This document shows positions 3,705-40,007 of a DNA stretch of 42,522 bases, in pieces. Under the pieces are notes generated by a model. The model searched no databases and had not been told where the DNA came from. It worked only from the letters and a program-made list of their open reading frames with translations. The stretch lies in IMG/VR virus record IMGVR_UViG_3300045988_097304, positions 1 through 42,522 of that record. One strand, given 5' to 3'. The DNA comes from a virus. The translations under genes and the position numbers were made by a program. Every line of letters begins with the position of its first letter. Positions within the stretch are counted from its first letter, which is position 1.

Positions 3705-4130
3705 CTCGATCCTCCTCTAAAAATAACCACCATCGACGGAAAGGGCGCAGAGGTTTTCGCATCGCCAAACTTGATCCGCCCCTTCAAAAACCTGATTTCT
3801 GCCTGATGATAAATGTAGTCGTGAAAGGCTCGCGTGTCCGTCCGCGCAGGAATGAGCATCACCACCAGCGCGCCTTTCTGTGCTTCATCGTGTGCTTTTC
3901 TGATCCACTTTGGAAGCTCCCTTCCGTAGGGCGGATTGCAAAACACCCTTTTACCCCCCCCAATTTTGGGAAAGACCATCCTCCACCTTGGTAAAGTGAT
4001 CCGCGCATTTCGCGTTCTCGTGCGTGCTGCATGGATCGAGGTCAAAGTGGAATTCCGCGTCCAGCTCGTCAAAAAGAGCCTGCGGCGTCGCCCACTCAAC
4101 GGATGCGCTTGAAAATAGACAGCTATTCAC
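3701..4130 (-). pseudogene. dam: Phage Dam-type DNA N6-adenine methyltransferase split by a frameshift in a G8 homopolymer
   Basis: N-terminal frame from GTG 4130: WATPQALFDELDAEFHFDLDPCS..QNWGG, then stop. C-terminal frame: GGGKRVFCNPPYGRELPKWI..MLIPARTDTRAFH..APFPSMVVIF. The two frames join if the run at 3954..3961 has 7 G instead of 8. Confidence 0.8.
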
Positions 4131-4544: not shown

Positions 4545-5222
4545 CTATCCCTCCACCTCATCCAGATTGACCACGATGCTCTCAAAATATCTGTGCCGCT
4601 CCTCCGGCGTCATCTCCCGTAGTTGCTTTGCGTACTCGTCCATGTCGTCGCTTGCGGCTTGCAGCTTCGGCGCGTCTCGCCCTCCGGCAATCATCTGTCT
4701 GTCCGCGTCGATTCTCGCCCGCACGTCGCCCGGCATCATGCGAATCTCCTTGTGTACGGCGGCACGCGCCGCGAAACTGCGCTGAAAATTGCTTGCAATG
4801 ACGCTCTCGCTCACGCCGTCATTGCTGACTGCCCACTCGTACAGCTGGCTCGGCGATCCGACGACCTCCTGCACCACCTCCGGCAGCTCGGAAAACCGCT
4901 CCGCGCTGTGATACGCGCTGTCCTTCAGCGCACGCTTGACCAGCCCCCAAGCGTTCTGCGGAGTCAGCTCAAAGCCGTGAATAGCTTGGTTGATGACGTC
5001 GATCTTTTCCCTGATTTGCCCGACCACGGGCGGGAAGCCCTTGGTGTCGTTGGCGATAAACGTCCTGACCGCGTCGCTGACAAGGCTTGCGTCGTCGTCT
5101 GCGAAAAAGCTGTGCCAGAGATTGCCCGCTGCGTCCGCGTCGTCCAAGGTCGTGCCGACGTAAAAGCGCGGATATGCCGCTCGAATGATTGCCAGTATTT
5201 TCATGGTTTGCGCTTTTGTCAT
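4545..5222 (-). CDS. G39P-like replicative helicase loader (tentative)
   Basis: N-terminus MKILAIIRAAYPRF....LWHSFF..D...V..AV..F...TKGFPPVVGQI resembles the SPP1 G39P loader family. Located in the replication module. Confidence 0.5.
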   Translation of the reverse strand: MTKAQTMKILAIIRAAYPRFYVGTTLDDADAAGNLWHSFFADDDASLVSDAVRTFIANDTKGFPPVVGQIREKIDVINQAIHGFELTPQNAWGLVKRALKDSAYHSAERFSELPEVVQEVVGSPSQLYEWAVSNDGVSESVIASNFQRSFAARAAVHKEIRMMPGDVRARIDADRQMIAGGRDAPKLQAASDDMDEYAKQLREMTPEERHRYFESIVVNLDEVEG

Positions 5223-5863
5223 CGTCCTTCACGCTCCTCCAGCTCTTGAGCCAATTGCAAAAATGGATTTGTCGTCCTGTGCGCCCCTCCAGCTCCCGCC
5301 GCGGGCATCCGGTTGTCCCTGCCCTCCCAAGTGCGAACAGCTGCATGCCAATCCTTCATCCCTACGTTGCCGACCTTCCAGCCCTTCGAGGCGTAAAAGT
5401 CCACAAACCGCTGTGCGTCTACGTTGCTCCCGCGCTCCCGGCAGTACGCCGCGACGTCCTCGACCGTGGGCGGTGTGAAGCGTCGCGCAGCGACGGGGGC
5501 TTTTGGGGGAGAACTATCGTTCTCCCTCTCTACCTCTATCTCTCTCTCTTTCTCTTTCTCACTCTCCACCTCTTTCTCTTTCTCCTTGCGGTTTTGTTCC
5601 GCTTTTGTTTCCGTTTTGTTCTCGTTTTGTTCTTCGTTTGTTTTTGCTTTGTTTTTGCGATTCGCCGCTTTGATTCTCCCGCTGTCCAGCGTCGGACGAA
5701 TCAAAAGGAAGCACGCGGCGCAAACTCCTTCAAGGTTGTTTTGCTCTTGTTCGTCCAAAGCGTATTCCAGTATCGCGAACAAAACTTTCGCCCGTTCCTT
5801 CTCGGGCAGATTCTTGAGCGCATCGTAATAACTCCGATAGAACGTGAATTGCTCTCGTCTCAA
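5219..5863 (-). CDS. Replisome organizer (DnaD/DUF6291-like) with an E/K-rich linker
   Basis: FTFYRSYYDALKNLPEKERAKVLFAILEYAL near the N-terminus and PPTVEDVAAYCRERGSNVDAQRFVDFYASKGWK near the C-terminus. TTG 5863 has an AAAGGGGA RBS. An alternative upstream start at 5947 is possible. Confidence 0.6.
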   Translation of the reverse strand: MRREQFTFYRSYYDALKNLPEKERAKVLFAILEYALDEQEQNNLEGVCAACFLLIRPTLDSGRIKAANRKNKAKTNEEQNENKTETKAEQNRKEKEKEVESEKEKEREIEVERENDSSPPKAPVAARRFTPPTVEDVAAYCRERGSNVDAQRFVDFYASKGWKVGNVGMKDWHAAVRTWEGRDNRMPAAGAGGAHRTTNPFLQLAQELEEREGR

Positions 5864-5867
5864 TCTA

Positions 5868-6056
5868 TTATCCCCTTTCGCTTTTTTGAAAAATTGTGGC
5901 AAGCCCCTGAATCGAACAGGGCAGCCGGGCAAGGTGCTTCGCGTCAAATCCGAGAAAAAACAAGGAAAAAGATGAACGACTTTTGAGGAGGAACGCCCCG
6001 CTGATACCTGCTATGCTTGCCATGTTGCTGACGGTTTGACCCGCCAGCAATGCCAT
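5868..6056 (-). CDS. Possible 62-aa ORF translationally coupled to the organizer gene
   Basis: AAGGGA lies 6 nt before the ATG and the stop is 5 nt before TTG 5863. No motif; could be non-coding. Confidence 0.25.
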   Translation of the reverse strand: MALLAGQTVSNMASIAGISGAFLLKSRSSFSLFFLGFDAKHLARLPCSIQGLATIFQKSERG

Positions 6057-6186
6057 TTGGAATCCCTTTGAACACTTCTGCTCGGCGGTCGGTGGTATCG
6101 AGCAACCCCTGCCTGCCCGCGCTGCTACCCGCGATTCAGGCTGCTCCCTGAGATGACCGCCATGTGCAGGGTTGCCCCTGCGTCAG

Positions 6187-6588
6187 TTAAAACGGCAGCT
6201 CGTCGTCATCGACCTGAATGGACGTGAATCCCGCAGCCGCAGGAGGCTGTGGTGCCGCCTTGTCCTGAGGCTTCTGCGACAGGAACTCGACCGTGTCAGC
6301 GTTAATCGTCCAAGCCCGCTTTTTTGCGCCGTCTCGTCCCTCGTAGTCCCTGCTCTGCATCTCGCCGACGACCAGCACCTTTTTCCCTTTCTCGACGTAC
6401 ATCTGACAGATGTTGCCGAGGTTGCCCCACGCCGTCACGTCGAAGAAGTCCGTTTCGTATTCCTGCGTCGTCTTGTTTTTAAATTTCCGCTTGACGGCGA
6501 CGCTGAAATTACAGCAGGTCATGCCGCTTTGCGTCGTCCTCATCTCAGGGGTATGGACGACATTGCCGGTTACGGTAATTTGATTCAT
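6187..6588 (-). CDS. ssb: Single-stranded DNA-binding protein
   Basis: OB-fold pattern MNQITVTGNVV..PEMRTT..G....NFSVAV. Gly/Pro/Ala linker and acidic tip DDDELPF. Confidence 0.92.
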   Translation of the reverse strand: MNQITVTGNVVHTPEMRTTQSGMTCCNFSVAVKRKFKNKTTQEYETDFFDVTAWGNLGNICQMYVEKGKKVLVVGEMQSRDYEGRDGAKKRAWTINADTVEFLSQKPQDKAAPQPPAAAGFTSIQVDDDELPF

Positions 6589-7199
6589 TTCTTTTCCTCA
6601 GCTTTCCACGCCTTGTAACAGCCCCAGCAGAGCTTTTTCCCGCTCTCTTTTTCCGTAAATTCCGCGACGCCCTGCGCATCCTTGATGATTACGCCGTTTT
6701 TGTCGCTCAGGCTGAGAATGCTTCCTTTGCACATTGCGCAAATCAGTCTGGGTGCGGTCGGCTCGCTCTCATCAGGGGTAGTCTGGTCGGGGTCTGGCGC
6801 GGTCTCCTCCGTCGGAATGCTGAAAATCTGGAACATTGCGTATTTATAGGCGATTGCCATCGCCTTGTTTGTCGCTTTGTCGCCGCTGTCCATGCCTTCG
6901 CCGATGACGACCGCCTGAATGCTGCTTCCGTCCTCCGCATACAGCGTGTATCTCATCGTAACGATGCTGTATATCAGATTGTTGCCCTTTGCCGTCTTTC
7001 TCTCCTCGCGCTCTTGCCTAATGACCTCCGGCACGCAAAAGAGATTATGCTTGACCATCTGCGGGTTAAGCGCATTCATAACATCATCGACACCGCGATA
7101 ATTAAAGCCCTGCTGTTGATTGCGCTTGTCCTTTGTGACCGCGCCGAGGTCGCGCATGACCGCGTTAATCGCGCTGAATATCTTTGGGGCTTCTGCCAT
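6585..7199 (-). CDS. erf: ERF-family single-strand annealing recombinase with a C-terminal zinc ribbon
   Basis: APKIFSAINAVMRDLGAVTKDKRN..GFNYRGVDDVMNAL..., ...DKATNKAMAIAYKYAMFQIF. AAGGAGGA RBS before ATG 7199. Confidence 0.8.
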   Translation of the reverse strand: MAEAPKIFSAINAVMRDLGAVTKDKRNQQQGFNYRGVDDVMNALNPQMVKHNLFCVPEVIRQEREERKTAKGNNLIYSIVTMRYTLYAEDGSSIQAVVIGEGMDSGDKATNKAMAIAYKYAMFQIFSIPTEETAPDPDQTTPDESEPTAPRLICAMCKGSILSLSDKNGVIIKDAQGVAEFTEKESGKKLCWGCYKAWKAEEKK

Positions 7200-7360
7200 C
7201 ACCAATCCTCCTTACACTTGTCCATCGGGTCATTCACCGGGTCGTCCTCCCAGTAGTGGTTGTACGGTCTGCCGTACGCCATCGGGCGCTCGTCCTCGTC
7301 TTCGCATCGCCCGCAGCCGTCACATTCACTCTTGAGCCAAATCTTGCACGGATACGCCAT
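7199..7360 (-). CDS. Small acidic Cys-rich protein (53 aa), below the ORF-track cutoff
   Basis: Read by hand: MAYPCKIWLKSECDGCGRCEDEDE... The stop overlaps the erf ATG (ATGA). Confidence 0.45.
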   Translation of the reverse strand: MAYPCKIWLKSECDGCGRCEDEDERPMAYGRPYNHYWEDDPVNDPMDKCKEDW

Positions 7361-7541
7361 TCTCGTCACCTCCATATTCCGCGTAGTGCTTCCTGATCCA
7401 CGCCGGGATGTGGATCAGCTCGACGCATCCGTCCTTGAGCGTCTGTATCGCCTCCAGCACGTCCGGCGCAGCCACGTTGCCTTCGTCCACAAACGCGTTG
7501 ACGATGTTTCCCGCCCGAATGAAGTCACTCCGATTGAGCAT
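7326..7541 (-). CDS. Hypothetical protein (71 aa)
   Basis: GAGAGGGAGTGGAG RBS before ATG 7541. Confidence 0.5.
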   Translation of the reverse strand: MLNRSDFIRAGNIVNAFVDEGNVAAPDVLEAIQTLKDGCVELIHIPAWIRKHYAEYGGDENGVSVQDLAQE

Positions 7542-7857
7542 TGCTCCACTCCCTCTCAAAGCACGCCACAAAATTATTGTCGATGCGGTGTCCGTTTTCG
7601 ATCATCCGCCCATTCTCGCCGCAAACCAGCTCGCCCTTGGCGTCCCGCTTGTAGTTCGTTCGCAGCAGAAACACGTCGGAGATATCCGCATTAATATCCT
7701 CCAGCGTTTTGACAAGCTCCTTGTAAGTCATCGGCACGCCGATCCTTAAACATAAATCCAGCTGATACCGCGCCACTCCGTCATCATGGATTGCACCCGT
7801 CAGCGTCATTGCATTCCCGTCAATCACAAATCTTTTCGTTCCGACTTTCTGCGACAC
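7525..7857 (-). CDS. Hypothetical protein (110 aa)
   Basis: GGAGG RBS 9 nt before GTG 7857. The longer track ORF has no RBS. Confidence 0.5.
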   Translation of the reverse strand: MSQKVGTKRFVIDGNAMTLTGAIHDDGVARYQLDLCLRIGVPMTYKELVKTLEDINADISDVFLLRTNYKRDAKGELVCGENGRMIENGHRIDNNFVACFEREWSNAQSE

Positions 7858-8008
7858 GCGATTTTTCCTCCTTCTCGATTCTCCGAATCCTTTGCCATTC
7901 CGCCCTGCGCCACGCGCTCGGGTCGTATAGCTCAATCTGTCCGTTGCTCTTGCAGATGCAGACCGGATATCCCGGTCGCTTATTGGGCTTTGTCATTCTG
8001 CCGCTCAC
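7820..8008 (-). CDS. Hypothetical basic protein (62 aa)
   Basis: AGGAGG RBS 6 nt before GTG 8008. Confidence 0.45.
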   Translation of the reverse strand: MSGRMTKPNKRPGYPVCICKSNGQIELYDPSAWRRAEWQRIRRIEKEEKSRVAESRNEKICD

Positions 8009-8111
8009 GTTGCACCTCCTGCTCGATGCGAACGACCAGATAGATCAGCGTTACCGCCAACACAAGCAAGTCCAAGACCGACAATACACCCCAGATCGTG
8101 TCCCAAATCAT
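7977..8111 (-). CDS. Possible 44-aa single-pass membrane peptide
   Basis: Read by hand: MIWDTIWGVLSVLDLLVLAVTLIYLVVRIEQ.. ATGA overlap with the upstream stop. Confidence 0.35.
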
Positions 8112-8359
8112 ACCCTCACCTCCATTCCCAGCATCGCGCAGATGTCGCGATACTCCTTCAGTGTGAAATCGCTCGGTGATTTGAATCTGCTGTACAGGCA
8201 GACGCGGCTCATGCCGAGCTTCGCCGCAAGCTCCGTCAGCGTGATTTGCTTGCGTGCCCGCTCTTCGGTGATGAGGCTCATCAGCGCGTCGTCCCGCGCT
8301 TTGTTGGCTTGCCTGCGCCGCTCCGCTTCCGTCAACGCTCTGACTTTCGGCATTGACAA
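8108..8359 (-). CDS. HTH DNA-binding protein (83 aa)
   Basis: ITLTELAAKLGMSRVCLYSRFKSP is an HTH motif. AAGGAGGG RBS. Confidence 0.6.
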   Translation of the reverse strand: MSMPKVRALTEAERRRQANKARDDALMSLITEERARKQITLTELAAKLGMSRVCLYSRFKSPSDFTLKEYRDICAMLGMEVRV

Positions 8360-8382
8360 TTCCCTCCTTGTTCCCTTATAAT
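8353..8382 (+). promoter_or_regulatory. Near-consensus sigma-70 promoter on the plus strand (TTGACA-18-TATAAT)
   Basis: TTGACA at 8353..8358 and TATAAT at 8377..8382. It overlaps the RBS and start of the minus-strand HTH gene. Confidence 0.45.
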
Positions 8383-8388
8383 CAGGGT

Positions 8389-8436
8389 GTACATTCCTTT
8401 TCGCTTCCGTCGCCCGGTCGGGCGGCGGTTTTTTTT
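8389..8436 (+). ncRNA. Candidate ~48-nt antisense small RNA (promoter-to-terminator unit)
   Basis: Hairpin CCGTCGCCCGGTCGGGCGGCGG (8407..8428) followed by T8 (8429..8436), about 7-50 nt downstream of the promoter. No ORF. Confidence 0.4.
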
Positions 8437-8593
8437 ACGCCCCCTGTGCCGCCATCTTGCCCATGTTGTAACCAGCCAGCATTGCCGCGGCAACTGCCAG
8501 CGCGGTCTGCTCGCTGCTCTCCGGCAACGCCTTGACCAGATTCGCCGCCAGCTCCAGCTTGGTCGCCTTGTCCTTCTTCTTCATTTGATTCAA
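8435..8593 (-). CDS. Possible 52-aa protein (..MKKKDKATKLELAANLVKALPESSEQ..)
   Basis: AGGAGG lies 9 nt before TTG 8593. Preferred over the low-complexity track ORF 8382..8603. Confidence 0.35.
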   Translation of the reverse strand: MNQMKKKDKATKLELAANLVKALPESSEQTALAVAAAMLAGYNMGKMAAQGA

Positions 8594-8599
8594 TTTGAT

Positions 8600-8974
8600 T
8601 CACCTCCTAATCAAGAACATCAGAAATGCCCCTACGCAAACGCCCCATATGAATTCCACCAGTATCCAAAGCACGATGGTCTTGACGTCGAGACCGGGTT
8701 CGCCCTCAGCCTCCCGCCGCGTCCCGCGATACGGGATTGCGTTCATGTTCTTTCTGCAAGTGCTTTCGGCTTTCATCTGGTCGCAAAGCTTGGTCAGCGA
8801 TTCGCTGATGACGCTGATGAATAACACGTTTCCGTCGCTCGACTCCGTTGCCTCCAGCGGCGTTCCGCCGATCCGGCTCAGCGCGTTGACGACAGCCTGC
8901 TTGTCGAGCATTTTCAAAAAGGTTTTGAGTCTGCGGATGTCATAGAGCAGAATGTCCATTTCATCCAAATCCAT
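8600..8974 (-). CDS. Hypothetical protein with a C-terminal membrane anchor (124 aa)
   Basis: C-terminal IVLWILVEFIWGVCVGAFLMFLI. RBS AAAGGA. Confidence 0.55.
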   Translation of the reverse strand: MDLDEMDILLYDIRRLKTFLKMLDKQAVVNALSRIGGTPLEATESSDGNVLFISVISESLTKLCDQMKAESTCRKNMNAIPYRGTRREAEGEPGLDVKTIVLWILVEFIWGVCVGAFLMFLIRR

Positions 8975-9005
8975 CTGTTCGTTCCTTTCTCCCTACCTAA
9001 ATCTG

Positions 9006-9014
9006 TGTTATACT
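9006..9014 (+). promoter_or_regulatory. Extended -10 element TGTTATACT for the plus-strand 58-aa gene
   Basis: TG at 9006-9007 and TATACT at 9009..9014. No good -35. Confidence 0.35.
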
Positions 9015-9038
9015 GTAAATCAGGAAGGGGGTGATATC

Positions 9039-9215
9039 ATGTCTACCGAGTTGCGTCAGCAGCTTGCTCTCCTTTACGCTCATGCCCGTGCCAGCGGACA
9101 CGACGTAACGCCTGAACAAATCAAGCTCTGGTTTGATGAGGCTATGGATGCTTACGCTTTCAAGCCAGAGCAAAAGGTTGAAAAGCCCGAATGGGATTTC
9201 GCCCTGCGCGATTGA
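9039..9215 (+). CDS. Plus-strand 58-aa hypothetical protein embedded antisense in the early operon
   Basis: GGAAGGGGG RBS before ATG 9039. Followed by its own terminator. Confidence 0.55.
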   Translation: MSTELRQQLALLYAHARASGHDVTPEQIKLWFDEAMDAYAFKPEQKVEKPEWDFALRD

Positions 9216-9223
9216 CACCTTTC

Positions 9224-9253
9224 GCCGGATGGTTAGTCGCCATCCGGCTTTTT
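9224..9253 (+). terminator. Rho-independent terminator
   Basis: GCCGGATGG/CCATCCGGC stem, 7-nt loop, TTTTT. Confidence 0.75.
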
Positions 9254-9496
9254 AAATGCCGCCGGAATTCCGTATCGCGCCGCGAAGCTGATTTTCACGC
9301 TCTCTTTGCAGAATCGAGCAACGTTTTTCCTGCCCGTAATCCGCCCGTCGCGGCACTCCCGCGCAATCAGCGCGAACAGCCCGTCCAGCATCGCCTGTTT
9401 TTCCTCTGCCGTCGCCAGCACTTCATCCATCGCTTTCGCGGTCTCGATGCAGTTGGCAATCAGGTCGCTGCCCTTTTCCACGATTTCCTTTGCCAT
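9233..9496 (-). CDS. Hypothetical protein (87 aa)
   Basis: AGGAGG RBS. The stop lies in the loop of the convergent terminator. Confidence 0.6.
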   Translation of the reverse strand: MAKEIVEKGSDLIANCIETAKAMDEVLATAEEKQAMLDGLFALIARECRDGRITGRKNVARFCKESVKISFAARYGIPAAFKKPDGD

Positions 9497-9548
9497 GCTT
9501 TCTGACCTCCTTTCTTTTTCACATTCTCTTTATCTTCGTGCCATTAGG

Positions 9549-9557
9549 TGTTATAAT
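9549..9557 (+). promoter_or_regulatory. Extended -10 promoter element TGTTATAAT
   Basis: TG at 9549-9550 and TATAAT at 9552..9557, 36 nt upstream of ATG 9593. Confidence 0.45.
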
Positions 9558-9592
9558 GTACCTATTAAGCCGCGAAAAGAGGGAATGTATGT

Positions 9593-9898
9593 ATGTTTGG
9601 TTTGCAATTTAAGATCCTCTGCGCCATCGCTTTTGTCCTGCGCTATCATTGGCATGATTATGACAATCTGCCATTCATCGCAATCCTTATCCTTTGCGTT
9701 GAGGTCTACGATTCTCTATTCCACTGGTCGTTTGATATCCATATCTCACGACCAGTCGCAGTCATCGCCATAACCTGTCTCATTTGGGGTGCTGTCGATG
9801 TCTACGCCTTGAGCATTGGATATTTTGTTTACTGGTGCTTGTGGCAGCTGAGAGGAATCCTCTTTTGCATCCTTGATAAAATCGTAAATCGATCATAG
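9593..9898 (+). CDS. Plus-strand multi-pass membrane protein (101 aa), low GC; candidate lysogen-expressed moron
   Basis: Hydrophobic segments ILCAIAFVL, FIAILILCV, VAVIAITCLIWGAV, IGYFVYWCLW. It has its own promoter and terminator. Confidence 0.6.
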   Translation: MFGLQFKILCAIAFVLRYHWHDYDNLPFIAILILCVEVYDSLFHWSFDIHISRPVAVIAITCLIWGAVDVYALSIGYFVYWCLWQLRGILFCILDKIVNRS

Positions 9899-9901
9899 CC
9901 A

Positions 9902-9931
9902 AATCCCTGCCGTTGTCGGTGGGGATTTTTT
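9902..9931 (+). terminator. Rho-independent terminator (convergent with the cro-like gene end)
   Basis: AATCCCTGCCG-TTGT-CGGTGGGGATT followed by a T-run. Confidence 0.7.
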
Positions 9932-10202
9932 ACTGCGCGGCTTTTTCGTTGCCCTCCGGCATCCGGAAGATGTCGTCGCAGGTGCAGCCCAGCGTCTTGG
10001 CGATGATGGGGATGTACTCTGCTCGGATAATCTTGTGCCCAGCCATCATGCAGCTGAACGACTGTCTGGACATGCCGAGGTTGTCCGCAACCTTGCCGTG
10101 GCGAATCCCTCTTTCATCCAGAATCCGTCGGATATTGCCGATGATGATGGCGTTCCGTCGGATGTTGCCGATGATGATGGCGTTCGATGGCTTGTCTTCC
10201 AT
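9930..10202 (-). CDS. Cro-like XRE-family HTH regulator, first gene of the early operon
   Basis: IGNIRRILDERGIRHGKVADNLGMSRQSFSCMMAGHK is an XRE HTH. AAGGAG RBS. Divergent from the CI-like gene. Confidence 0.75.
   Translation of the reverse strand: MEDKPSNAIIIGNIRRNAIIIGNIRRILDERGIRHGKVADNLGMSRQSFSCMMAGHKIIRAEYIPIIAKTLGCTCDDIFRMPEGNEKAAQ
10125..10184. repeat. Tandem 30-bp in-frame duplication (29/30 identical) inside the cro-like gene
   Basis: CCGTCGGATATTGCCGATGATGATGGCGTT repeated with one A/G difference. It encodes NAIIIGNIRR twice. Confidence 0.9.
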
Positions 10203-10229
10203 GGGTATCTTCTCCTTTCTTCTGCTTTA

Positions 10230-10304
10230 TTGATTTACGATATCATTTTATCGTATTTCGATATCATTGTCAATACTATTTTAAAAAAATATTGATTTTC
10301 GATA
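10230..10304. promoter_or_regulatory. Operator-like repeats in the switch region
   Basis: Palindrome TACGATA-N6-TATCGTA at 10236..10255 overlaps the lytic -10. CGATATCATT occurs at 10238 and 10259. TTGATTT(A/T)CGATA occurs at 10230 and 10292, the latter overlapping the lysogenic -35. Confidence 0.5.
10245..10273 (-). promoter_or_regulatory. Early (lytic) promoter TTGACA-17-TAAAAT
   Basis: Minus-strand TTGACA is the complement of 10268..10273 and TAAAAT is the complement of 10245..10250. Confidence 0.6.
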
Positions 10305-10320
10305 AAACCAGTGCTATAAT
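10292..10320 (+). promoter_or_regulatory. Repressor/lysogeny promoter TTGATT-17-TGcTATAAT
   Basis: TTGATT at 10292..10297, extended TG at 10312-10313 and TATAAT at 10315..10320. AAAGGAGG RBS, then TTG 10344. Confidence 0.65.
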
Positions 10321-10343
10321 AATTCTCGAAAGGAGGTTTAACT

Positions 10344-10694
10344 TTGGAGAAACGGATTAAAGAGATTCGCCGTGTCTACAACCTGAATCAGACGCAATTC
10401 GCGGAAAAAATCGGGTTGAAACAGCCAACGATTGCAGGGTACGAGAATGGGAAAGACGTTCCGATGTCTACAATTGTTACGATTTGTCAGATTTTCCCTG
10501 ACATCAATAAAGTTTGGCTTTGCACTGGCGAAGGCGACATGAAGCTCGAACAGTCTGCCGAGGATGCGGAACGCATGGTCAATCTCATGCGCGGAATGAG
10601 CGAAAATAAAAAGAAGCTCTTCCGTATCCTCGTGGATATGCCGGATGAGCTTCTGGATGAAATGATTTCCTATATGAAAAAGGAAATCAAGTGA
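10344..10694 (+). CDS. CI-like XRE-family repressor (116 aa)
   Basis: RIKEIRRVYNLNQTQFAEKIGLKQPTIAGYENGK is an XRE HTH. Same orientation as the integrase, with a C-terminal extension. Confidence 0.75.
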   Translation: MEKRIKEIRRVYNLNQTQFAEKIGLKQPTIAGYENGKDVPMSTIVTICQIFPDINKVWLCTGEGDMKLEQSAEDAERMVNLMRGMSENKKKLFRILVDMPDELLDEMISYMKKEIK

Positions 10695-10893
10695 CGGGCG
10701 GTCGCTGCTCGATTTCCAATTTGAGCAGCGCTCTCGCCGTGCCGAGCAGGTAGTAGATATCTTCGCCGTCGGTTAGCATCTCTGCAATGGCGGCGATCTC
10801 CTTCCTCTCCTGCTCAAATTCTACCGGGATGGGCTTCGGCGCGGCTCTCCGCGCTCTGTGTGAGGTGACGTTCTTCGGGCGGCTCTCTTTCAT
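10687..10893 (-). CDS. Possible 68-aa protein convergent with, and overlapping by 8 nt, the repressor 3' end
   Basis: AAGGAAG RBS. No motif. Confidence 0.4.
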   Translation of the reverse strand: MKESRPKNVTSHRARRAAPKPIPVEFEQERKEIAAIAEMLTDGEDIYYLLGTARALLKLEIEQRPPVT

Positions 10894-11019
10894 GCCATCA
10901 CTTCCTTATAAATATTATACTCGCATCTCTAACGGATATAATATTTTCGACAAACGTTCTCACGAATATAAAGATATCTGCACAAAAAGTGCATTTTTTC
11001 GACAAATTTGAGGTGTTTT

Positions 11020-11361
11020 ATGGATTATTCGAAACGTCGTTTTGTGTATGTCCTGATTTGCGCCGTCCCGTCGCTGCTTCTCGCGCTGCGTGAAGGGCTC
11101 TCGCTGATGGACGCCGTGCTTTTTGTCGGGATGATTGCGTTATTTTCCGCTTTGGCTCTGATGGTTGTCGGACTTCCAGCATTCATCATTTTTAGCATCG
11201 TCCCGCATTTTCTTCATTATTTGGGTTTTATGCCGGATGAGTACATGTCTCCCGACCAGCTAAAAATCTGTGAAGATTTTGGAGTCGGTGTTGTCGTTGG
11301 CGCAGTCGTAATCGCCGTATCGTTCGGCTTCCCTATTTATCGTCTCTTTGTCCCAGCATAA
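11020..11361 (+). CDS. Multi-pass membrane protein (113 aa) between repressor and integrase
   Basis: GAGGTG RBS. Hydrophobic segments VYVLICAVPSLLLAL, AVLFVGMIALFSALALMVVGLPAFIIFSIV, GVGVVVGAVVIAVSFGF. Confidence 0.6.
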   Translation: MDYSKRRFVYVLICAVPSLLLALREGLSLMDAVLFVGMIALFSALALMVVGLPAFIIFSIVPHFLHYLGFMPDEYMSPDQLKICEDFGVGVVVGAVVIAVSFGFPIYRLFVPA

Positions 11362-11491
11362 AAAAAAATAGCCCTGTCCGTGCGCTAACACAGACAGGAC
11401 GATGGCACCCCCCTGACAACCGCGAAAGAAGGGAACATCTATATGATACCATATTTCCCTTCCTTTCGCAACATAGAAAGGAAGATTGATT

Positions 11492-12571
11492 ATGCCGAAA
11501 ATTGAAAAGACAAAGACCGGTTACCGCGCCCGCATCTCTACGGGTGAAAAGCTCCCGTCCGGCGGATATCGCTATATTTCCGTTTCTGGCGCGACGAAAG
11601 CCGATGTAAGGCGAATGATTGCCGAGTTCGACGAGAACCGCGAAAACGCCCTTTCCGCGAATCTGGCGGGGCGTGTGACGCTGGCTCAGGCGATGGATAA
11701 ATACCTCGATACCTGCCGCTCCGCCGGTCGCTCTCCGTCCACCATTCGCGGCTATGCCGCCATGCGGCGCAACGGTTTTGAATCTCTCGAATCAAAGCCC
11801 ATCGCCAAAATTTCCCGCGCCGAATTGCAATCTGTGGTCAATGACTGGACGCGATCCGGCGCAACCCCGAAAACCGTCCGCAATAAGCTCGGCTTTCTCT
11901 CCGCTTCCATGAAGCACGCCGGAATCGAGCCGCCGACGCAAGGACTGATCCTGCCCGAACCCGACCGCAAAGAGATGACCATCCCGCAGGATGAAGACGT
12001 GCAGCGTGCGCTGTTCTACCTTCGCGCACACAACACCAACCTCTACGTCGCGGTCGTCCTTGCCGCAACGCTGGGTCTGCGCCGCGGCGAAATCGCCGCC
12101 CTGACGATGGATGACTTCGACTTCGACGCGGGAACGGTCACCATCAGCAAGTCACTCGCCATGGATGAGTGCGGCGACTATGTCACCAAAGCCCCGAAGT
12201 CCCGCAGCGGTAACCGCGTCCTGCGCGGGCTGGATGCGCTCGTCGTCTCCGCTGTCCGCAACTTCGGTCATCAGCCGCCGCAGACCATCACCGGCATGAC
12301 ACCCGCCAGCATCACAGATTCGTACATGCGCCTGTGTAACAAGCTCAATCTCCCCGGTCGCTTCCATGACCTGCGCCACTACGCCGCGTCCGTCATGGCA
12401 GCCCTCAACGTCCCGCCCAAGTACGCTCAGGAGCGCATGGGACACGCGACGCTCGACATGCTCAATCGTGTCTATCAGCACACGATGAGCAAAAAGCGCG
12501 ATGCCGTAGCCGACGCGATTGCGTCTCACAACGCCGCGCTGCTCGGCGGCAAATCCTGCCAGTACAAATAA
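11492..12571 (+). CDS. int: Tyrosine site-specific integrase
   Basis: LGLRRGEIAAL (box I Arg) and RFHDLRHYAASVM...MGHATLDMLNRVYQH (HxxR...Y). Adjacent to the attP-like region. Confidence 0.9.
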   Translation: MPKIEKTKTGYRARISTGEKLPSGGYRYISVSGATKADVRRMIAEFDENRENALSANLAGRVTLAQAMDKYLDTCRSAGRSPSTIRGYAAMRRNGFESLESKPIAKISRAELQSVVNDWTRSGATPKTVRNKLGFLSASMKHAGIEPPTQGLILPEPDRKEMTIPQDEDVQRALFYLRAHNTNLYVAVVLAATLGLRRGEIAALTMDDFDFDAGTVTISKSLAMDECGDYVTKAPKSRSGNRVLRGLDALVVSAVRNFGHQPPQTITGMTPASITDSYMRLCNKLNLPGRFHDLRHYAASVMAALNVPPKYAQERMGHATLDMLNRVYQHTMSKKRDAVADAIASHNAALLGGKSCQYK

Positions 12572-37276: not shown

Positions 37277-38683
37277 TTAGTCCAGCGGATTCCACGCTTT
37301 CCGCTTCGGTTTGGGCGCGACGATCTTTGGCGCGAGCGGTCTTGACATTAAAAAGTATCGCGTCTCGTCGTAGATGTGGTCTTCGCCCGCCGTGTCGATG
37401 TCCTCAACCTTGTGTTCGTCATAGCACAGCGTCGGGATTGTGCGTATAAAGTCCGTGCAGTTGCTGAATACATACATCATCGGTCGCCCGTCCTCGTCAA
37501 ACCGCAGCCGCTCATGCACCTGCATCTTGCCCGGCATCCGCGTGTTGTCGCCTTTGCGGAACGTGACGCCGGAAAAGACCTTGCGGATCTGCTCCTCTAC
37601 GCTCGTTCCCCGACTCTCGTCCCAGATGGCAGGGTCGGCAATGCCCGTGATATGAATGCCTTCCCTGAATTCCGGCTCGAGCCAGTCCGCCAGCTTCGCC
37701 GCGATCTCTCCCGGCGTGAGCATCAAGCCGACGTTTGCCTCGCCCTTTTTGCAGCCGTACAGCTCCTTGTATCGGTATGCCCTGCCGTCAGGGTCAACCG
37801 CCCACGCGCCGAACGAAAACGGACGTGAAAAGCCGTGGTCAAAGCTGACGTACCGCGTCCAGTGCAGCGGAATGTCGAACGGGTCGATGACGTGCGTATG
37901 CAGCCCGTCCTTGTAATGCTCAGGGTCGTTTGTAAATTCCGGGAACGCCTGCCCCTCGAACGCGTCCCACTTGCCCAGCAGCAGCGCGTCCCGCAGCTTG
38001 TCGGGCTTCTGCTCCAGCTCCGCGATATACAGCTCATCAATGTGCGGGTTGTCATATACCGTCGCCGGGATGTACTCGCATACCGATTTCATCGTCTTTT
38101 TCTGCCCGTCGCGTCCGGTAATCTCCGTATCCTTGATCACCGTGTGCGTCCCGACGTCCGTTGAATCCACGAACCGCGCCTTCACCCAGCCGTGTCCGGG
38201 ACCTCCCGGGTTGCTCGCGCATCGCACACAGGGCTTGACGCCAAGGCGCAACGGCGCACGCAGTCGCGTCTTGATGTAGTTGTACATGCTTTCGCTGAAG
38301 TGCGTCAGCTCGTCAAAGTACAGCCACTGTATTTCCGCGCCCTGGTACTTGATGGTGTCGCCCTCGTCGCTCAGGTGGCAGAACCTCGCCACGCTCCCGT
38401 TGACAAACTGCATCTCATGGTTGCCGCTGTAATACTTGCCAAGCGTCTCCGGCACAATCATCCGCATCGTCTTGATGAGCGTCTGTTCCAGTTCCGGATA
38501 TGTCCGTCTGAACAGATACGCGCTTGTTCCCGGGTATTTCAGGCAGCGCATGGACGCATCCCAGCAGATGGCGTAGCTCTTTCCTCCGCCTGCCGCACCG
38601 CCGTACAGAATCTCGTTGCTCTTGCTCGCGTGAAACAGCCGCTGCTTGGCGGTCGGGCAGTAGTCAAAGACGATGCTGTTCAC
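37277..38683 (-). CDS. terL: Terminase large subunit
   Basis: Walker A ILYGGAAGGGKSY and Walker B WLYFDELTHF. A nuclease-type C-terminal half. GTG start with a GAGAGGGA RBS. Confidence 0.9.
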   Translation of the reverse strand: MNSIVFDYCPTAKQRLFHASKSNEILYGGAAGGGKSYAICWDASMRCLKYPGTSAYLFRRTYPELEQTLIKTMRMIVPETLGKYYSGNHEMQFVNGSVARFCHLSDEGDTIKYQGAEIQWLYFDELTHFSESMYNYIKTRLRAPLRLGVKPCVRCASNPGGPGHGWVKARFVDSTDVGTHTVIKDTEITGRDGQKKTMKSVCEYIPATVYDNPHIDELYIAELEQKPDKLRDALLLGKWDAFEGQAFPEFTNDPEHYKDGLHTHVIDPFDIPLHWTRYVSFDHGFSRPFSFGAWAVDPDGRAYRYKELYGCKKGEANVGLMLTPGEIAAKLADWLEPEFREGIHITGIADPAIWDESRGTSVEEQIRKVFSGVTFRKGDNTRMPGKMQVHERLRFDEDGRPMMYVFSNCTDFIRTIPTLCYDEHKVEDIDTAGEDHIYDETRYFLMSRPLAPKIVAPKPKRKAWNPLD

Positions 38684-39198
38684 GGGATAAAATCCCTCTC
38701 GTACGCCTTAACCCATTCAGGCATTTCCCCGATCGGCGCAATTCCTTTCACGGCTGGAATGTCGCTCCTCTTGTTATCGCCATGCCGCCTAATCCGCGTA
38801 ATCAGATACTCAAACTCTCTCTTCTCGAAGTTTTGAAGCCCAATGAAATACATTACGCCAATGTCCGCGCCTCCGTATTTCACGACATCGTCTGCCCCGA
38901 TTTTCCGAAAACATATTCTGTCCCCGCACGCATTCGGAATCTCATTCCCCTCGAGAGAGAACTGACAATAGAATTTCAGCAGATTTGCCACTCTACATTC
39001 CGCAATGTCCTTTTCGTCCTTGTAGAATACATAGATGTCCCACTTTTGCTTCGACAGGGTTCGTCTTCTGTTGAGCATGTTTAAAATGTGTATAAAAGCC
39101 ACGTCATATCTCTGATTTTCAACGAAGCTCTTCTCATCATTGATGAATCGTTCCTCGTCTTGGTCTACATTCAAACCGACCTCAAAACCAAATCTCAC
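38680..39198 (-). CDS. Degenerate paralog of the TerL N-terminal ATPase domain lacking Walker A/B (172 aa), low GC
   Basis: By-eye alignment to TerL residues ~22-170: VVKYGGADIGVMYFIGLQNFEKREFEYLITRIRR vs TIKYQGAEIQWLYFDELTHFSESMYNYIKTRLRA, and PIGEMPEWVKAYE vs PGGPGHGWVKARF. Confidence 0.55.
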   Translation of the reverse strand: MRFGFEVGLNVDQDEERFINDEKSFVENQRYDVAFIHILNMLNRRRTLSKQKWDIYVFYKDEKDIAECRVANLLKFYCQFSLEGNEIPNACGDRICFRKIGADDVVKYGGADIGVMYFIGLQNFEKREFEYLITRIRRHGDNKRSDIPAVKGIAPIGEMPEWVKAYERDFIP

Positions 39199-39200
39199 GC

Positions 39201-39635
39201 TCACTCCTCCTCTTCCGCCGGCATGCCCAGTTCAAACCCACTCGCAAACGAAATGCTGATATCCTGCTTCTCGTCCTTCGTCGCCTTGATGCCTGCTCTG
39301 TCCAGCGTATCCCGGATGGCGTTTTGCCACAAATACTGGAATGCAGGGTCGTAATTCGTGTTCAGAATCTCTTCATTGCGGTCGAGTGCCGCAGGGACTT
39401 GTTCGAGAATCCTGATCTTTGCCTGCGCCAGCCTCGCGTCCGACAGTGCCTTGATTCTGCCCGCGTGCTCCTCCGCGCCCAGCACTCGGTAAATCGTCGC
39501 CCTGTCTACTCCGTACTCCCGCGCCAGCTCGCTGACCGTCTCGTACTCCTCTACATACCTGCGTACAACCTCTCTGCGCTGCTCGTCCGTCAGTTTTCTG
39601 TTCGGCGGCGGCGTACGCGCCTTGTTTTTGCCCAA
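39201..39635 (-). CDS. terS: Terminase small subunit (HTH type)
   Basis: LTDEQRREVVRRYVEEYETVSELAREYGVDRATIYRVLG. GGAGGG RBS 6 nt before TTG 39635. The longer track ORF would cross a terminator hairpin. Confidence 0.55.
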   Translation of the reverse strand: MGKNKARTPPPNRKLTDEQRREVVRRYVEEYETVSELAREYGVDRATIYRVLGAEEHAGRIKALSDARLAQAKIRILEQVPAALDRNEEILNTNYDPAFQYLWQNAIRDTLDRAGIKATKDEKQDISISFASGFELGMPAEEEE

Positions 39636-39672
39636 GCCTATCCCTCCTTTTTTTGACCTGCCCTTTGGGTAT

Positions 39673-39707
39673 AAAAAAATTCCAGAAACTCGTGTGAGTT
39701 CTGGAAT
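39673..39707 (-). terminator. Rho-independent terminator ~40 nt upstream of terS
   Basis: Minus-strand TTCCAGAAC..GTTTCTGGAA hairpin followed by T7. Confidence 0.65.
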
Positions 39708-40007
39708 AGTGCTTATGTGTTCTGCTTTCTTCGCGTTTTTGCTTCCTGCTTGACCGGCAGGGGAGACGCCCGCAGGGCGGGGAGGCATATGTCCTTCGCC
39801 CGTAGGCGCGCCTGAGGTGGTCAATTCCGCATCCCCCGCCGCCCTTCCGCAAATCTGCTTTCAAAATTCTGCCTTTCGCGCGTCCCCGCGCCTGCCTGCC
39901 CGTCCGCGTGTGAGCAAGGGCTTGCCTTGTGCGGGTACGCATCCCACACGCTAGCCCTCGTCAATCCCAGCAATATCTACATTATCAGACCATCAGCCCC
40001 GCCGTGC

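Follow-up and report, generated by a model that had tools for sequence, protein, structure and literature searches.

What does a third open reading frame (ORF) do when it stands between the two terminase genes of a phage? The question is raised by IMG/VR record IMGVR_UViG_3300045988_097304, of which positions 1 to 42,522 were analysed; this whole stretch of 42,522 nucleotides is called the window below. The window is a complete viral genome (42.5-kb) with direct terminal repeats, and TerL relatives of its phage group were found in metagenome-assembled genomes (MAGs) of gut Clostridia. The minus strand carries the packaging genes in the order terS (small terminase), the ORF of 172 codons, terL (large terminase) and a P22-type portal gene. 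An earlier note, made from the DNA letters, had placed the ORF there, and its position was confirmed in the ORF list, on the minus strand. The same note took the product for a paralog of the TerL ATPase domain without Walker motifs, either a dead decoy or regulatory subunit or a fossil of a terL module exchange. The ORF is very probably a real, translated accessory gene whose product is a pseudo-ATPase copied from residues 1 to ~172 of the group's own TerL, that is, from its five-strand ASCE (additional strand, catalytic E) core. The features on which this reading depends are:

38680..39198, minus strand: the 172-residue ORF, read as a truncated TerL ATPase-core paralog without Walker motifs (ORF list, homologs, TerL homology, AlphaFold2, Foldseek, selection).

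38701..39054, minus strand: TerL-like segment, ORF residues 49-166 in the 172-residue numbering against TerL 49-170, from beta2 through the C-motif strand (hhalign E 2.3e-7, translation).

39112..39129, minus strand: SFVENQ at the expected site of the TerL P-loop (LYGGAAGGGKS), with six residues gone and no G-K-S/T (MAFFT, translation).

38839..38850, minus strand: YFIG, the counterpart of the Walker B sequence YFDE, with both acidic residues lost (alignment).

The ORF product was compared with TerL at the level of single sequences and of profiles. BLASTP against the adjacent TerL, run as a single comparison, gave 35% identity over 63 residues (E 1e-6). By hhalign, the family profile of the ORF was aligned with a profile built from 20 TerLs, yielding Prob 93.5 and E 2.3e-7 over 115 columns; ORF residues 51-168 were paired with TerL residues 49-170. 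All three matches to TerL that had been drawn by eye were reproduced in this alignment, including that of IYVFYKDEKDI with AYLFRRTYPEL. The N-terminal 48 residues of the ORF had no significant TerL alignment in hhalign; in MAFFT alignments with N-terminal fragments of TerL, the ORF was collinear with TerL from residue 1. The phage's own terL was recovered at E 1.1e-9 when a hidden Markov model (HMM) of the ORF family was used in a six-frame scan, and single members of the family, the distant homolog P0128 included, matched the same TerL segment in many relatives by tblastn. The best-conserved blocks of the family are those that it has in common with TerL, namely the KYxGAxI loop, the Walker B strand, the helix that follows it and the beta5 strand.

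The TerL of the window carries Walker A (GGAAGGGKS), Walker B (YFDE), an ASNP C-motif and the nuclease half. In the MAFFT alignment a gap of 6 residues falls exactly at the P-loop, where LYGGAAGGGKS of TerL is faced in the ORF by V, the gap and ENQRY, and the residual sequence SFVENQRY does not contain GxxxxGK[ST]. The Walker B pattern hhhhDE with its catalytic glutamate is likewise absent: YFDE is replaced by YFIG, or by FFAG in P0128, and the G is invariant across the family. The missing Walker A and the exchange of YFDE for YFIG had both been noticed before, and hold in the alignment. The C-motif ASNPGG is aligned with GIA-PIG. The ORF ends at TerL residue ~172 of 468, where the lid subdomain would start, and contains neither the lid nor the RNase-H-like nuclease domain. 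Lacking P-loop, Walker B acidic pair, C-motif, lid and nuclease, the protein would not bind or hydrolyse ATP as TerL does and would not cut DNA, and must therefore act by binding.

An AlphaFold2 (AF2) model was built only from the 9-sequence family alignment. The model had a predicted local distance difference test value (pLDDT) of 69 and a predicted template modelling score (pTM) of 0.72, and its beta-alpha order was ASCE-like, as in the N-subdomain of TerL. At the place of the lost P-loop, strand 27-29, a short loop and helix 34-46 were retained. The best PDB matches of the model in Foldseek were large terminases (Sf6 gp2, D6E, T4 gp17, HK97 and T7), with prob 0.97-1.0, E about 1e-3 and a query-normalised TM-score (TMq) of about 0.5. 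Terminases also made up the majority of the named top matches in BFVD. The ASCE/RecA-like core fold of the TerL N-subdomain is thus predicted for the ORF product by the AF2 model and the Foldseek matches, and similarity to the TerL N-domain was significant in the profile comparison (hhalign E 2.3e-7) as well as in the structural one, where terminases were the top Foldseek matches. Sequence, profile and predicted fold all support the suggestion of the earlier note that the protein is a catalytically dead TerL ATPase paralog.

Homologs of the ORF are P0001-P0007, P0129 and P0128. Identity to the window copy is 94% or 57-60%, and about 30% for P0128. Their lengths are 172-174 residues, except for one 166-residue variant with a shifted C-terminal tail and for P0128 (188 residues); all frames are open, and an 8-sequence family alignment has 88 invariant columns. 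An exhaustive phmmer search of 1.8 billion representatives (50%-identity) returned two clusters only, the ORF's own and that of P0128. A profile word-search of 5.8 billion proteins returned ten 90%-identity clusters, nine of which are placed exactly between terS and terL. No locus was confirmed by family-profile scans of IMG/VR and GTDB genomes; one IMG/VR carrier, L024, was seen through the terL scan and covers no more than the final ~33 codons, where its contig ends. INPHARED gave no match by blastn. In the 166-residue variant (P0006, L119:3001-3501) the tail reads …LRDTKGN and the frame ends 3 nt before terL rather than in a 20-nt overlap. This altered tail implies that the family can do without the last ~8 residues, whose sequence is set by the terL overlap.

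Selection was estimated from nonsynonymous and synonymous differences (pN, pS) and substitution rates (dN, dS; omega, dN/dS). On long branches pN was 0.23 and pS 0.68-0.71 (Fisher p about 2e-17), with omega about 0.14-0.17 and dS saturated. In the L002-type group, omega was 0.29-0.61 for the ORF, as against 0.01-0.10 for terL and 0.08-0.29 for terS in the same pairs; the value for the ORF is clearly below 1 in aggregate. Omega of terL across the compared pairs was 0.01-0.12, and that of the ORF was 5-50 times TerL's. Judged from these rates, the protein is constrained yet fast-evolving. The search of related phages returned open homologs with pN far below pS, and none that was riddled with stops. 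The fossil of a terL module exchange, which the earlier note had offered as one of its readings, is rejected because of the purifying selection, the full-length conservation in several backbones and the homolog at a second genomic site.

The remaining features of the locus are:

39206..39211, minus strand: AGGAGG, the ribosome-binding site (RBS) of the 172-residue ORF, embedded in the last terS codons, which encode an EEEE tail (direct reading).

38680..38683, minus strand: GTGA shared by the ORF stop and the terL start, for translational coupling (direct reading).

38684..39215, minus strand, approximate: optional cassette, from the last 4-5 terS codons up to, and excluding, the terL start codon (blastn, junction sequences).

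37277..38683, minus strand: terL, intact large terminase of 468 residues (Pfam Terminase_6N 2.8e-14; PHROG 979 6e-45; >7500 homologs).

39201..39635, minus strand: terS, small terminase of helix-turn-helix (HTH) type, 144 residues from TTG 39635 (Pfam HTH_28; PHROG 2538 terminase small subunit).

Two start codons were considered for the ORF. GTG 39204 would give 174 residues; GTG 39198 (172 residues) is the better start, because AGGAGG lies 7 nt upstream of it and the N-terminus MRFGF then matches MLFGF of the homologs. The stop codon TGA (38680-38682) overlaps the GTG of terL (38681-38683) as GTGA, an overlap of 4 nt in the window as against 20 nt in the L002-type relatives. An RBS belonging to the ORF (AGGAGG) and the GTGA overlap had been pointed out earlier, and both were read again in the sequence. 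GAGGAGG is present in the terS tail of the ORF-plus phages L002 and L004 and missing from that of the ORF-minus phages L009 and L020, and the RBS is kept in all carriers of the ORF. In all relatives, terS homologs have 144-149 residues and are followed directly by terL or by the ORF. The terS frame of the window is open further upstream, to TTG 39824 (207 residues; window 39636-39824). Translation probably leaves out the extra 63 N-terminal residues and most likely begins at TTG 39635, because the homologs have only 144-149 residues.

The base composition of the ORF differs from that of its surroundings. Its GC content is 0.42-0.47 (0.46 overall) as against 0.57-0.60 around it, and GC at third codon positions (GC3) is 0.56 as against 0.79 in terL; the AT-rich codon composition recurs in all carriers. 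The AT-richness remarked on before is therefore real (GC 0.46 as against 0.57-0.59 in the neighbours; GC3 as given). An optional gene that is AT-richer than the surrounding genome has a trait of morons. A consensus scan for promoters and terminators found none inside or beside 38680-39215, and the classic moron architecture was rejected for the window copy, which has no promoter or terminator of its own and is coupled in translation on both sides. Sporadic insertion between conserved genes, together with a composition deviating from the flanks, is also a trait of homing endonucleases. This identity was rejected as well: no nuclease Pfam domain (GIY-YIG, HNH, LAGLIDADG etc.) was found, and the fold is that of the TerL ATPase core. 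A frameshift fusion of the ORF with TerL was rejected in view of the 4-nt overlap in the window, the 20-nt overlap in L002-type phages and the 3-nt gap in L119, with no conserved slippery arrangement.

Presence and absence of the ORF were compared among close relatives. Within the window's own lineage the ORF is lacking in L009, L017 and L018, whose TerL is 97-98% identical to that of the window and whose terS overlaps terL directly (…GAATGAGC…); the portal of L009 is 98% identical to the window's. L019, L031 and L011 (TerL 89-90%) are likewise ORF-minus with overlapping terS and terL. When the window was aligned with L009 and L018 by blastn, the flanks were 94-96% identical, and the alignment broke off in the terS 3' end and resumed at 38682/38683, at the terL start. 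The left edge of the cassette was placed near 39215 from the junctions of L017-L019 and L031. The same clean indel was found in a second lineage, between ORF-plus L002 and ORF-minus L020-L023 and L025, with flanks about 91-98% identical. Among loci of the unbiased IMG/VR sample with TerL identity of at least 85%, 9 are without the ORF and 1 (L024) has it. In these alignments the ORF is a discrete cassette of ~0.53 kb with an RBS of its own, optional, and carried by a minority of otherwise near-identical phages.

Neither terminase subunit was found to change with the ORF. The TerL of ORF-plus L004 equals that of ORF-minus L020 at all 468 residues, and no TerL positions fixed differently between carriers and non-carriers were found. 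The ORF co-occurs with at least 3 diverged types of terS, which its divergence does not track. Co-adaptation of TerL or TerS with the ORF was thus searched for and not found.

Synonymous divergence of the ORF and its flanks was compared pair by pair. For L002-L117, dS was 0.31 in the ORF as against 0.92 in terL and 1.14 in terS, and L004-L117 and L117-L120 behaved alike. Between the window and L002-type phages the order was reversed, dS of the ORF (1.7-2.1) being above that of terL (0.8-1.2). This incongruence with the flanks indicates that backbones have traded the cassette; the homologous recombination involved presumably took place in the flanks, which are conserved at terS-3' and terL-5'. 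Mosaicism was also seen in particular pairs. Between L002 and L004 (terS 4560-4997; ORF/terL 5001-6912), terS differs by dN 0.23 and dS 0.81 and terL by dN 0.001 and dS 0.10; a mosaic terS beside a non-mosaic terL places a recombination breakpoint between terS and the ORF, which in this pair moves along with terL. The window and L120 have a common terS type (dN 0.07) and a diverged ORF. The terS tail of the window (39201-39243, …ASGFELGMPAEEEE) resembles that of L019/L031 (…ASDGFELGMPESGTDEE) and not that of the closest terL relatives L009/L018 (…AGGGFDVNMPEGGADEE), a small mosaic patch.

One family member, P0128, is located elsewhere. Its site is the early operon of L008, a phage related to that of the window, where it has a cI/cro-like region on one side and the ERF, Bro-N and ANT genes on the other. 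Synteny links the early region of L008 to window 11937..4550, in which the place of P0128 is taken by about 80 bp only. Unlike the coupled window copy, P0128 is an independent cistron with intergenic spacers, and it looks like an independently inserted one. The stretch upstream of it (L008:3345-3440) holds a GC-rich hairpin (GGCCGTCGGC…GCCGACGGC), about 55 nt and a AAAGGAAG RBS; a spacer of about 90 nt follows downstream. The position in the early operon and that between terS and terL would both fit a protein that is needed before or with TerL.

The source of the ORF was traced through scores of the family profile against TerLs. Scores were 31 bits against TerLs 97-100% identical to that of the window, 30 bits at 86% and 26 bits at 70%; more distant TerLs scored about 15-26 bits at 47-66% identity and <10 bits at 46% or less. 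Outliers were L045 (45% identity, 20 bits) and, on the low side, L019 and L031 (90% identity, about 19 bits). P0128 showed the same preference for TerLs of the window clade. Scores that are highest on this clade and fall with divergence indicate that the family descends from a TerL of this phage group and not from an unrelated terminase. An origin by partial 5' duplication of terL would fit, given the similar N-termini (MRFGFEV and MNSIVFDY) and an ORF start that lies on the terS stop; the AT-richer codon composition is not accounted for by such a duplication. A foreign terL fragment from a low-GC phage was considered and is disfavoured, since the profile scores best against the window TerL clade and decays with distance.

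No second TerL-N-like region was found near terL when 100 related loci were searched by tblastn with the window TerL, except in two interrupted terL genes. In L078 (3805-4355; Clostridiales MAG SFHJ01000042.1), terL (70% identity) is broken after GEDH by an intein-like insert that begins CLVGDTLVHTDCG… and finishes …VVQNGVVAHN/CYDETRYF. The frame of the insert is broken, with a stop at 4090 and resumption in another frame at about 4178, and the insert may be a decaying mini-intein or an assembly error. In L052 (1877-2750; IMGVR_UViG_3300031994_003772), terL (43% identity) is interrupted by about 870 nt at an equivalent position, TerL residue ~436-439, which may be the same intein or an insertion hot spot in the nuclease domain.

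Known families were searched for the ORF and its homologs. The 9 members had no Pfam match at E up to 10 and fell below all terminase gathering thresholds; no NCBIfam model matched, PADLOC returned 0 families for the three members tested, and a profile search of PDB sequences found no match. PHROG 979 (TerL) was the sole match, a weak one, for three members (E 0.01-0.14). A literature search on terminase decoys and dead paralogs found no description of such a protein. The ORF and its homologs are a small undescribed family.

For the function of a protein of this kind, genetic conflict is considered first. Tentatively, and with less than even confidence, we infer that the ORF product is a binding-only mimic of the TerL ATPase core in such a conflict; its most likely form is that of a paralogous decoy which engages sensors of that core. 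The protein would be made just before or together with TerL and would occupy putative host sensors of the TerL ATPase core (Avs1-3-like or Upx-like). It would not supply the ATP-loaded active site or the full interface for triggering, and the working TerL would thereby be shielded. A more specific form, somewhat less likely again, is that phages carry decoys of their own most conserved pattern, and that a P-loop-less mini-TerL, made shortly ahead of TerL or, in one relative, from the early operon, saturates or poisons the receptors (Avs1-3, Upx or undiscovered Clostridial sensors), so that the real motor would go undetected. If true, this would be the first anti-defence protein that acts by mimicry of the sensed phage protein itself.

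What is known of the sensors bears on this in both directions. The TerL ATPase domain alone triggers Avs2 and Upx (PMC13601566). Avs2 and Avs3 read terminase-bound ATP and the active site, while recognition by Upx is independent of catalysis and is modelled as capture of core beta-strands (PMC13601566). In the literature the known anti-Avs proteins are not TerL mimics, which leaves the niche of a TerL mimic open. The combination of a portable cassette, horizontal exchange, two genomic sites, fast evolution and no co-adaptation with TerL or TerS is the pattern expected of a conflict gene. If the protein is a decoy, its evolution favours a partner from outside over the TerL or TerS of the phage itself: a fast-evolving outside partner would fit because the ORF is dispensable, TerL is identical in carriers and non-carriers, the terS types are untracked, omega is 5-50 times that of TerL and one copy lies in an early operon.

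Several points weigh against a decoy. The stand-alone TerL-like proteins T4 vs.8 and Ksap1/2 activate Avs2 and do not block it (PMC13601566), and a TerL look-alike could be a liability, not a shield. The ORF product is without the ATP and the active-site residues that Avs2 and Avs3 contact, and so may not be bound by them. The family is tiny (about 10 clusters), so that inferences on selection and transfer rest on few sequences, and confidence in the AF2 model is no more than moderate (pLDDT 69; Foldseek E about 1e-3, TM about 0.5).

The partner could also be the terminase itself. The product would then be a non-hydrolysing subunit that caps or poisons the pentameric motor via the TerL ATPase domains, or binds TerS, and that tunes the phage's own packaging or blocks the motors of co-infecting relatives or satellites. 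We hold this to be unlikely. The parts that the family keeps are the most conserved ones of the TerL core (KYxGAxI loop, Walker B strand, next helix and beta5), in 3 backbones the ORF stands between terS and terL with translational coupling, and doping experiments with packaging motors count in the same sense, since a single dead subunit can stall a motor. Satellites provide a precedent in PLE Gpi, a packaging inhibitor that binds the TerL of ICP1 (10.1101/2024.04.22.590561). The genomic comparisons speak otherwise. TerL is identical in an ORF-plus and an ORF-minus phage and none of its residues co-varies with the ORF, the ORF has an omega 5-50 times that of TerL and does not track the terS type, and it is dispensable, with one member in an early operon, at a distance from the packaging genes. 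A rival's motor and the phage's own would be equally sensitive, yet the ORF is translated in cis, with coupled stoichiometry; given an identical TerL, the own motor would not be spared while the ORF is co-translated with it, which makes a poison subunit unlikely. The regulatory subunit, fully integrated into the operon, that the earlier note had envisaged is weakened by a gene that is optional and lacking in near-identical sister phages, and by the identical TerL of an ORF-minus phage; a core regulatory subunit is unlikely.

A role apart from the terminase and its sensors, for example as a binder of host factors or nucleic acid on the old ASCE scaffold, would make the ORF product a neofunctionalised small protein. 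This is more doubtful again. The loss of all catalytic motifs, the N-terminal 48 residues without significant TerL alignment, the member that lies among early genes beside recombination and anti-repressor genes and the lack of a match to any known family are consistent with it; the best-conserved blocks are exactly those common to TerL, and 9 of the 10 clusters lie exactly between terS and terL, both of which argue against it. Improbable, finally, is a neutral or selfish passenger without a function of its own, left at low cost by a partial terL duplication or module exchange at a terS/terL recombination hot spot: sporadic presence with clean boundaries at gene borders, AT-richer composition than the rest of the genome, a short-branch omega of 0.3-0.6 and the breakpoint at the terS/ORF border (L002 vs L004, terS dN 0.23, terL dN 0.001) would suit it, but all full-length copies that were inspected keep an open frame of about 172-174 residues over dS >1.5, pN falls far short of pS (p 2e-17) with 88 invariant columns in the 8-sequence alignment and the RBS kept in all carriers, a 30%-identical homolog is retained as an independent cistron at another locus, and there is no nuclease or other mobility domain to make the ORF selfish.

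The decoy reading thus remains the one we prefer, tentatively. The TerL ATPase core is among the most conserved of phage proteins, and several immune sensors of bacteria read it as a major pattern (PMC13601566). Copies of it that stand alone are barely described, T4 vs.8, with its Walker motifs kept, being the one documented case found. Natural pairs of ORF-plus and ORF-minus phages with identical TerL allow a direct test of the decoy, poison-subunit and regulator ideas. Even if the ORF product were a mere modulator or passenger, its family would be a new small one that deserves the annotation 'TerL ATPase-core paralog, Walker-less'.

Compared with the N-terminal ATPase core of TerL (Sf6 gp2, 4IFE/4IDH; D6E, 5OE8; T4 gp17; HK97, 6Z6D), the ORF product is homologous, collinear with residues 1-172 and predicted to have the same beta-alpha-beta order. 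It differs in having no P-loop, IG in place of the Walker B DE, a degenerate C-motif and no lid or nuclease, and in being optional and fast-evolving. Outside phages, PsXLP1 of Phytophthora sojae, a truncated inactive paralog from the work of Ma et al. in Science in 2017, reportedly shields the enzyme PsXEG1 from a host inhibitor. The likeness is that of a truncated dead paralog encoded beside the active enzyme and co-expressed with it; kingdom and molecules are different, and a decoy role for the ORF product would be a conceptual parallel only. PLE Gpi, an accessory protein of small size whose effect on the packaging motor comes about by binding, may be a functional analogue (10.1101/2024.04.22.590561). 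Gpi is encoded by a satellite and, in the abstract of the source, is not described as a TerL homolog, whereas the ORF encodes a TerL paralog in a complete phage genome. By analogy, the closest documented case is T4 vs.8, likewise a phage gene in its own right in which the TerL ATPase domain is the only part copied (PMC13601566). vs.8 keeps Walker A and B and activates EcAvs2 on co-expression (PMC13601566), whereas the ORF family has lost both motifs and is shorter. Close relatedness of the two is unlikely, as phmmer found only the ORF's own family, and the ORF family differs further in being a mobile cassette at the junction of terS and terL.

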